From Escherichia coli (GTDB lineage Bacteria > Pseudomonadota > Gammaproteobacteria > Enterobacterales > Enterobacteriaceae), in assembly GCF_044324785.1 (NCBI RefSeq), contig NZ_CP172127.1: a stretch of DNA of 64,000 bases; one strand, given 5' to 3'. The notes below the pieces were generated by a model. That model made no database searches. It was not told the origin of the DNA and was given only the letters and a program-made list of their open reading frames with translations. Position 1 is the stretch's first letter, and every line of letters begins with the position of its first letter. Positions 60,544-60,973 of this stretch are shown in pieces. The position numbers and the translations under genes are program-made.

Positions 60544-60688
60544 GAGGCCTTTGCTGCGACTGCCATGTTCGGGTCGCAGCATCGCACACTCTCCAACATG
60601 AAATGGCTAAATGGATTATTGTTGCGTAGGAAGGAACAATAATGATAGTGTTCCCAGTGAAGGAACGCTACTGAGAGTAAAGACACTA

Positions 60689-60973
60689 ATGAAAATGGCC
60701 AATCATCCCCGCCCGGGGGACATTATTCAGGAATCACTCGACGAACTTAATGTCAGCCTGCGCGAGTTTGCCAGAGCAATGGAAATTGCGCCCTCAACGG
60801 CAAGCCGATTGCTGACCGGAAAAGCAGCTTTGACGCCAGAAATGGCAATTAAACTTTCCGTGGTGATCGGCAGTTCGCCGCAAATGTGGCTGAATCTGCA
60901 AAACGCCTGGAGCCTGGCAGAGGCTGAAAAAACGGTGGATGTGTCGCGACTGCGCCGTCTGGTTACGCAATAA
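60689..60973 (+). CDS. yddM: Xre/HigA-like HTH protein YddM (antitoxin-like, no adjacent toxin)
   Basis: 94-aa protein [20 protein letters not shown]... with HTH ([23 protein letters not shown]); ORF opens at 60611. Confidence 0.85.

Follow-up and report, generated by a model that had tools for sequence, protein, structure and literature searches.

The yddM gene of Escherichia coli as the probable surviving repressor half of a HigBA-type toxin–antitoxin module

Introduction

The yddM gene of Escherichia coli, which lies between adhP and fdnI, encodes an antitoxin-type DNA-binding protein and raises a simple question: does it stand there without a partner toxin and, if so, where did the toxin go and what keeps the antitoxin? 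A preliminary description of the 64-kb (64,000-nucleotide) stretch of E. coli DNA analysed here, hereafter the window, viewed yddM as an orphan antitoxin-like regulator and possibly a remnant of a lost toxin–antitoxin module. Orphan antitoxins have been widely noted (PMC7354431), and the decay of toxin–antitoxin modules is a known phenomenon. One such case in E. coli is ccdO157, a chromosomal module at a conserved site that degenerates across the species by deletion or nonsense mutation (Mine et al. 2009, as cited in PMC7167474). Public annotation already covers the yddM gene itself, its structure and family, and the toxin gene of other strains; in the searchable papers, we found no description of the toxin polymorphism at yddM. 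Here, we follow the locus across complete E. coli genomes and related genera, and ask what became of the toxin and why the antitoxin may have stayed.

Results

YddM is a HigA-family antitoxin between adhP and fdnI

The window has the E. coli-type gene order maeA–adhP–yddM–fdnI–fdnH (Table 1). Near-identical loci are found in 5,413 of 5,426 complete E. coli genomes, where the RefSeq gene names agree and yddM bears the product name 'HigA family addiction module antitoxin'. The separation of about 145 bp first described between adhP and yddM is borne out by the ORF coordinates, which place exactly 145 nt between the adhP stop (60543) and the yddM start; the range 60544–60973 is made up of this intergenic region and the yddM gene. 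A terminator and fdnI had been placed on the far side of yddM, and the 50-nt spacer there (60974–61023) does contain a terminator-type hairpin with a strong fold (−16.2 and −17.3 kcal/mol, z about −3.8), preceded by A7 and followed by U4 on the + strand and followed by U7 on the − strand. A simple consensus terminator scan made no call at this hairpin, and Rfam returned only sub-threshold sRNA- or terminator-like matches to it.

By sequence, structure and descent, YddM is a HigA-family antitoxin. It scores 93.7 bits against the NCBIfam equivalog TIGR02607 'HigA family addiction module antitoxin' (cutoff 47.7), with residues 3–81 matching profile positions 1–80 of 81, and 39.1 bits against Pfam HTH_3 (cutoff 23), the Xre/Cro-type helix-turn-helix fold. 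All 94 residues are identical to 'antitoxin HigA' of E. coli CFT073 (PDB 2ICP/2ICT), which has been cited as a HigA-like antitoxin structure solved without its toxin (PMC3968373). The proteins of K-12, of toxin-plus B2-type E. coli and of E. albertii are identical to that of the window over the same 94 residues. What sets the window apart from the toxin-bearing B2 group, of which CFT073 is presumably a member, is the absence of the toxin gene and a different promoter haplotype. Since it shares its whole sequence with the antitoxin of toxin-plus strains, YddM would be expected to neutralise its cognate, B2-type toxin (WP_000605675.1).

Table 1. Coordinates of the genes and candidate regulatory elements around yddM in the window
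Feature	Position	Strand	Description
adhP	59533–60543	+	Alcohol dehydrogenase, 336 aa; upstream neighbour (ORF list, tblastn self-match 59533–60540, RefSeq annotation of near-identical loci)
Hairpin 3′ of adhP	60552–60581	+	10-bp stem GCUGCGACUG/GGUCGCAGC, 10-nt loop; in toxin-plus and toxin-less alleles
Segment S1	60582–60618	+	Toxin-less haplotype only; stands for about 84 nt of the toxin-plus haplotype
Putative operator O1	60620–60638	+	TGTTGC-N7-GGAACA, imperfect inverted repeat; exact motif match
Central perfect palindrome	60633–60654	+	GGAACA-N10-TGTTCC around the −10-like GATAGT (60644–60649)
Putative operator O2	60649–60667	+	TGTTCC-N7-GGAACG, inverted repeat; N7 as in all toxin-plus alleles
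Leader segment S2	60668–60683	+	Toxin-less haplotype only; sits where the toxin Shine-Dalgarno and 279-nt ORF lie in toxin-plus alleles
CAC TAA	60684–60689	+	Possible relic of the toxin last codon (His92) and stop; 1-nt overlap with the yddM ATG, as in toxin-plus alleles
yddM	60689–60973 (including stop)	+	HigA-family HTH (Xre) antitoxin-type DNA-binding protein, 94 aa
Two-way terminator-type hairpin	60975–61002	both	12–13 bp; common to yddM (+) and fdnI (−); from folding
fdnI	61024–61677	−	Formate dehydrogenase-N gamma subunit; convergent downstream neighbour (ORF list, tblastn, RefSeq annotation)

The surroundings of the gene vary between strains. The yddM–fdnI spacer changes in length by whole 178-bp units, each made up of a copy of the terminator hairpin and REP-like palindromes, with no copy in the window, RM14723 and uk_P46212, one in O157 and MS20653, and two tandem copies, 95% alike, in K-12 TOP10; other strains carry IS200/IS605-family insertions in this spacer. 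On the upstream side, 17 of the last 303 nt of adhP (60241–60543) are not those of K-12 (5.6%), the 157-nt intergenic stretch adjoining the adhP 3′ end is 100% identical to K-12, and the best match to window positions 60300–61200 among the 5,426 E. coli genomes reaches only 98.3%. These comparisons suggest that the adhP–yddM region is locally mosaic and rich in recombination.

No partner toxin is found in the window

With ten HigB-like toxins from orthologous loci as tblastn queries, the search for HigB-type remnants in the flanking gaps that the preliminary description had proposed gave only noise in 60500–60760 and 60940–61060 at E values up to 1000, as did a search of the whole 64-kb window at E values up to 10. 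By ORF list and tblastn on both flanks, no small toxin ORF lies beside yddM, and neither a toxin ORF nor a toxin remnant is detected at the protein level in 60544–60688 or 60974–61023. The short ORFs in the adhP–yddM gap are one of 25 aa on the + strand, one of 48 aa on the − strand and a 26-codon in-frame upstream extension of yddM; they are broken or altered in other alleles and are not conserved. The 120-aa upstream-extended yddM ORF, which would start at 60611, was rejected: it overlaps the operator block described below, is impossible in toxin-plus alleles and is broken in strain GTEN_23.

A complete type II toxin–antitoxin module consists of an adjacent, co-transcribed pair, and the window locus is not one. 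Some 1,330 genomes of the species have a toxin gene directly upstream of yddM, as do most related genera upstream of its homologues; it is absent here. The initial view of yddM as an orphan antitoxin-like regulator thus stands, with no toxin in the window and a toxin at orthologous E. coli loci.

The toxin gene at the orthologous site exists in several states

At the adhP–yddM–fdnI locus of toxin-plus strains such as MS20653, a 279-nt gene encodes a 92-aa protein and shares its last nucleotide with the start codon of yddM (a 1-nt overlap). The MS20653 product scores 63 bits against PF05015 'HigB-like toxin' (cutoff 27). The chromosomal toxin is 56–59% identical to plasmid Rts1-type HigB (E value 1e-31 to PDB 4MCT) and keeps His54 and the C-terminal D-Y-H of Rts1 HigB.

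At megablast sensitivity, 1,329–1,331 of the 5,426 complete E. coli genomes are toxin-plus; each has a single, chromosomal copy of the cognate toxin gene, which invariably lies at this locus. A 1-nt deletion within the toxin gene was first noticed in uk_P46212 and in an O25b:H4-ST131 genome, and a 61-nt probe specific for it has an exact match in 545 genomes. Across the 5,426 genomes, which are a biased sample of the species, the toxin is absent from about 75%, frameshifted in about 10% and apparently intact in at most about 14%. E. coli A3, from a bat, carries an in-frame 9-nt deletion that removes Gln26-Val27-Lys28 from the toxin, which is annotated as an intact 89-aa protein.

The pair is old and the toxin has been lost repeatedly

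A scan for YddM in one genome per species returned 41 loci. Nearly all of those in other Escherichia species, Citrobacter and more remote Enterobacterales have the toxin gene: the yddM homologue is preceded, at a distance of 2–3 nt, by the end of a HigB-like ORF in E. albertii, in three further lineages of Escherichia, at 11 Citrobacter loci, and in Cedecea, Buttiauxella, Pluralibacter, Enterobacter, Chimaeribacter, Erwinia and distant Proteobacteria. The toxin is intact at these 11 Citrobacter loci and degraded at two more; in this genus, the pair adjoins fdnI and, at two loci, adhP as well. Where present, the toxin is under purifying selection (pN/pS 0.06–0.14, with pS up to 0.5); in Escherichia and Citrobacter taken together, the toxin has a pN/pS of 0.14 and yddM one of 0.09, at pS of about 0.5. 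Because relatives carry the pair and both genes are constrained, the pair is old and vertically inherited, and the state of the window is derived by loss. The toxin-plus state is evidently ancestral, and the window evidently carries a derived toxin-loss (deletion) allele. With an intact pair at the orthologous locus of relatives and an intact yddM in the window, the gene has the features of an orphan antitoxin left by decay.

At least five further independent toxin losses, each with an intact antitoxin, were found in Citrobacter, Xenorhabdus and Chimaeribacter: Citrobacter sp. FP75 has an internal deletion of the toxin gene, C. portucalensis has a frameshift, one Xenorhabdus species has a frameshift and another a 5′ truncation, and in Chimaeribacter californicus only about 15 terminal toxin codons are left.

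The toxin-less allele retains a putative two-operator promoter block

Three blocks of the region between adhP and yddM are common to toxin-less and toxin-plus alleles: the 37 nt after adhP with their hairpin, about 50 nt at 60619–60667, and everything from 60684 onward. The first 37 nt are 97–100% identical in toxin-plus alleles, and the hairpin folds at −19.7 kcal/mol (z −2.3). It is followed by AUCGCAC, which lacks a U tract, in the window allele and by CUGUUUUG in toxin-plus alleles (E69 locus 2546–2585); in the toxin-less allele, termination after adhP may be weaker, with read-through into yddM.

The second block holds the candidate operators. O1 overlaps a weak −35-like TTGCGT (60622–60627), and the central palindrome, whose spacer pattern tgaTA.t is conserved across genera, is the sole match to its pattern in the 64-kb window, where 0.06 would be expected by chance; exact matches to the operator motif in the window are likewise confined to this site. 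Across 25 sequences from at least 9 genera, the four half-sites (TGTTSC/GGAAC) are near-invariant and the spacers variable, and the toxin-less allele of the window keeps all four with their N7 spacing unchanged. A consensus scan for a canonical sigma-70 promoter upstream of yddM called no site, and our −35/−10 assignment there agrees with 7 of 12 consensus positions. A weak Shine-Dalgarno-like GAGAG (60673–60677) lies in S2, 11 nt upstream of the ATG.

The third block would begin at the end of the former toxin gene. Window positions 60684–60700 are identical (17/17) to the junction of toxin end and yddM start in E. coli E69 (locus 2996–3012), and the TAA form of the toxin stop also occurs in strain 746. 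The five bases before the ATG, CACTA, equal the last toxin codon and stop of TAA-type toxin-plus alleles, and a reading of them as a scar of the toxin is plausible; the match is tiny and suggestive only.

Variants of the toxin-less promoter region were seen as well. In a common toxin-less sub-allele (strains tcmA_3 and YZMc10-2), the 19-bp O1 unit is exactly inverted, reading TGTTCCTTCCTACGCAACA against TGTTGCGTAGGAAGGAACA, and TGA rather than TAA precedes the yddM ATG. In GTEN_23, a 29-bp deletion between two AAGGAAC direct repeats (equivalent to 60638–60666) has removed the −10-like box and two half-sites; yddM is intact despite this promoter deletion, and an IS200/IS605 element lies downstream.

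Two promoter haplotypes without intermediates

Among the E. coli alleles examined, a single promoter haplotype accompanies the toxin and a second one its absence, with no intermediates. Intermediate haplotypes were sought in five toxin-plus alleles of the species, chosen from the most divergent; each has the standard toxin-plus promoter. Within the operator block, 10 of 48 positions differ between the two haplotypes of the species, all outside the half-sites or in spacers. S1 and S2 cannot be aligned between the haplotypes even though the flanking genes differ by only 2–6%: neither shows similarity to the toxin-plus allele beyond chance, the observed local-alignment score being reached by 442 of 1,000 shuffles for S1 and 778 of 1,000 for S2. 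Because of the 10 differences in the block and the unalignable S1 and S2, one simple deletion is insufficient to account for the toxin-less haplotype, and it may have been imported from an unsampled lineage or have arisen by complex rearrangement.

No candidate for a deletion junction survived shuffle controls. A junction at AGACAC (toxin codons 6–7), one that would leave about 30 nt of the toxin 3′ end, and one by recombination between the TAATGAA repeats at the toxin and yddM starts were each rejected, with similarity no better than chance; the same holds for what looked like a degenerate second copy of the yddM start farther upstream (ATGAAATGGCTAA). The junction proposed by a permissive global alignment was a different one again, also at chance level.

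A search for a phage source of the toxin-less haplotype gave no phage matches, and a plasmid source was rejected, since the plasmid matches are chromosomal fragments captured by IS26 or ISEcp1. On the IncX5 plasmid p1585m1_D, IS26–adhP and 91 nt from the start of the promoter region of yddM are followed by IS26, and the 219-kb conjugative plasmid pECTOK-001_1 carries ISEcp1–adhP–yddM–fdnI–fdnH–fdnG captured from the chromosome. The toxin-less promoter and 5′ end of E. coli yddM also turned up, with 100% identity, in a 214-nt contig of an assembly labelled Clostridium sp. CMCC3677, where it is almost certainly E. coli contamination.

One apparent mosaic was encountered, in O157:H7 strain TR01. 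Its intergenic region (equivalent to 60544–60688) is unchanged in total length at 145 nt. Toxin-plus sequence occupies 34 nt directly after the hairpin and 45 nt directly before the ATG, with 47 nt of the toxin 3′ end among it, and the middle is of the toxin-less type. Because the segment lengths are equal, this suggests an artefact of reference-guided assembly or polishing rather than a real allele.

The orphan gene remains under purifying selection

Ten toxin-less yddM alleles have 11 synonymous and 2 non-synonymous segregating sites, with pS 0.066 and pN/pS 0.028, a ratio equal to that of six toxin-plus alleles (0.028); the protein is identical in 9 of the 10 toxin-less genomes sampled. The orphan yddM is not decaying, and purifying selection on it is as strong as in toxin-bearing strains. 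Of the suggestion that the locus is a remnant of a lost toxin–antitoxin module, the descent is upheld by the toxin-bearing relatives at the same locus; a passive remnant it is not, given this selection. The ancestral operator and promoter block, as assigned here, is retained as well.

Discussion

A probable self-repressor kept after the loss of its toxin

We consider it likely that yddM is the antitoxin and repressor half of an old Rts1-type HigB–HigA module, the toxin of which was lost, and that YddM has been kept by selection as a stand-alone self-repressor. The ancestral module, with the toxin gene first, would have lain between adhP and fdnI as a vertically inherited chromosomal pair. In the haplotype of the window, which is that of about three quarters of sequenced E. 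coli, the 92-aa toxin gene and its ribosome-binding site would have been removed, leaving behind the adhP hairpin, the ancestral hig promoter block with four half-sites, possibly the last codon and stop of the toxin, and an intact yddM. We envision that such a locus would no longer be able to arrest growth, and that the YddM dimer would act as a stand-alone helix-turn-helix repressor on the candidate O1 and O2, most likely shutting off its own promoter and probably binding a few other chromosomal sites too, with selection for this regulatory role retaining the gene.

The closest model for this arrangement is the Rts1 HigB–HigA system of a Proteus vulgaris plasmid (PDB 4MCT/4MCX/6CHV), which resembles the ancestor of the yddM locus in its toxin-first order and 92-aa PF05015 toxin. 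There, two inverted-repeat operators overlap the −35 and −10 elements, the HigA dimer is a strong repressor by itself, HigB does not act as a co-repressor, and base-specific contact with the DNA is made by Arg40 of HigA alone (PMC12266136). Over 81 residues, Rts1 HigA and YddM are 41% identical (counted by hand on the alignment; E value 1e-18). We infer the promoter assignment, the binding of YddM to O1 and O2, autorepression and the reason for retention; self-repression through O1 and O2 is suggested because Arg40 and the neighbouring contact residues are kept, as is the layout of two inverted-repeat operators, putative in the window, over the promoter. Unlike the window, which holds only the repressor half, Rts1 HigBA is plasmid-borne and complete; its operator sequence also differs, and the operator centres lie about 22 bp apart there as against 29 bp here. 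GraT–GraA of Pseudomonas putida (PDB 6F8S/6F8H), a HigBA-type system with an Xre-type antitoxin that is complete in that species, is a much more distant relative (E value 2e-11 for YddM and GraA, 5e-7 for the toxin and GraT).

In toxin-less K-12, tagged YddM was among the 10 of 16 candidate regulators for which DNA binding was confirmed by ChIP-exo, and a motif analysis was performed on its binding regions (PMC6237786). The gene can be deleted from K-12: Keio and lambda-Red mutants exist and are viable, and some genetic interactions and a single, uncomplemented drug-sensitivity phenotype have been described for yddM knock-outs. Several observations count against the self-repressor reading. GTEN_23 has lost 29 bp of the operator/−10 block, yet its yddM is intact, so either yddM can do without this promoter, perhaps because transcripts from adhP read through, or the deletion is recent; in addition, there is no canonical sigma-70 call, the Shine-Dalgarno is weak, the operator spacing is unlike that of Rts1 and the toxin-less haplotype is more diverged than one simple deletion would explain.

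Alternative explanations

A related but doubtful account, which we would nonetheless place ahead of the others, is that the toxin-less haplotype, too diverged from the toxin-plus one to derive from it by simple deletion, arose once, possibly by import from an unsampled lineage, and spread through most of the species, with a domesticated YddM being kept for an acquired host regulon beyond its own promoter.

It is unlikely that YddM is kept mainly as an anti-addiction or immunity factor, which would neutralise incoming HigB toxins from plasmids or recombined toxin-plus E. coli DNA and so protect against post-segregational killing. Such a role has been proposed for orphan antitoxins in reviews (PMC7354431; PMC7167474). 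YddM is indeed identical to the antitoxin of toxin-plus strains, and 447 plasmids, including 88 of Escherichia, carry HigB-like toxins. However, the truly plasmid-borne toxins are all less than 60% identical to the chromosomal one, and the three near-identical 'plasmid' matches are on records of 250 kb to 4.9 Mb that look chromosomal. Antitoxin specificity is usually narrow, and the modest identity of YddM to Rts1 HigA counts against this role as well. Exposure to the cognate toxin, being single-copy and chromosomal, would be rare, and protection alone would leave the conservation of the operators unexplained.

It is very unlikely that yddM is a functionless leftover, intact only because the toxin was lost recently. 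Chromosomal toxin–antitoxin modules of E. coli do decay, as ccdO157 exemplifies (cited in PMC7167474), toxin loss with a surviving antitoxin recurs in this family, and one allele has lost part of the promoter. Against this stand the constraint on toxin-less alleles, equal to that on toxin-plus alleles at the pS reported above, the near-uniform protein among the toxin-less genomes, the retention of all four half-sites and the binding of DNA by YddM in vivo in K-12 (PMC6237786).

That yddM is no orphan at all, its partner being hidden beside it or acting in trans as a homologue elsewhere, is highly improbable: although inspection covered 64 kb of the genome and the 145-nt gap does hold short ORFs, neither gap nor window has any HigB-like similarity within the E values searched, those ORFs are broken or changed in other alleles, no E. 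coli genome has more than one copy of the toxin gene or has it at another locus (at megablast sensitivity), and yddM is deletable in K-12.

Significance

The yddM locus is of modest importance and does not represent a new kind of system. It resembles ccdO157 in being a chromosomal toxin–antitoxin module that decays at a conserved location within a species; ccdO157 is of the CcdAB family, unlike the HigBA-type yddM locus. At yddM, moreover, three states coexist, deleted (about 75%), frameshifted (545 genomes) and apparently intact, and the antitoxin is without relaxed constraint. The locus thereby offers a clean natural series of the death of a toxin–antitoxin module, with deleted, frameshifted and intact toxins at one site in one species, and in every case of toxin loss, the antitoxin stays intact and constrained. 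For YddM of K-12, which has been treated as a regulator of unknown function, the comparison provides leads in the form of a candidate operator, a known structure and a cognate toxin, available in B2 strains.
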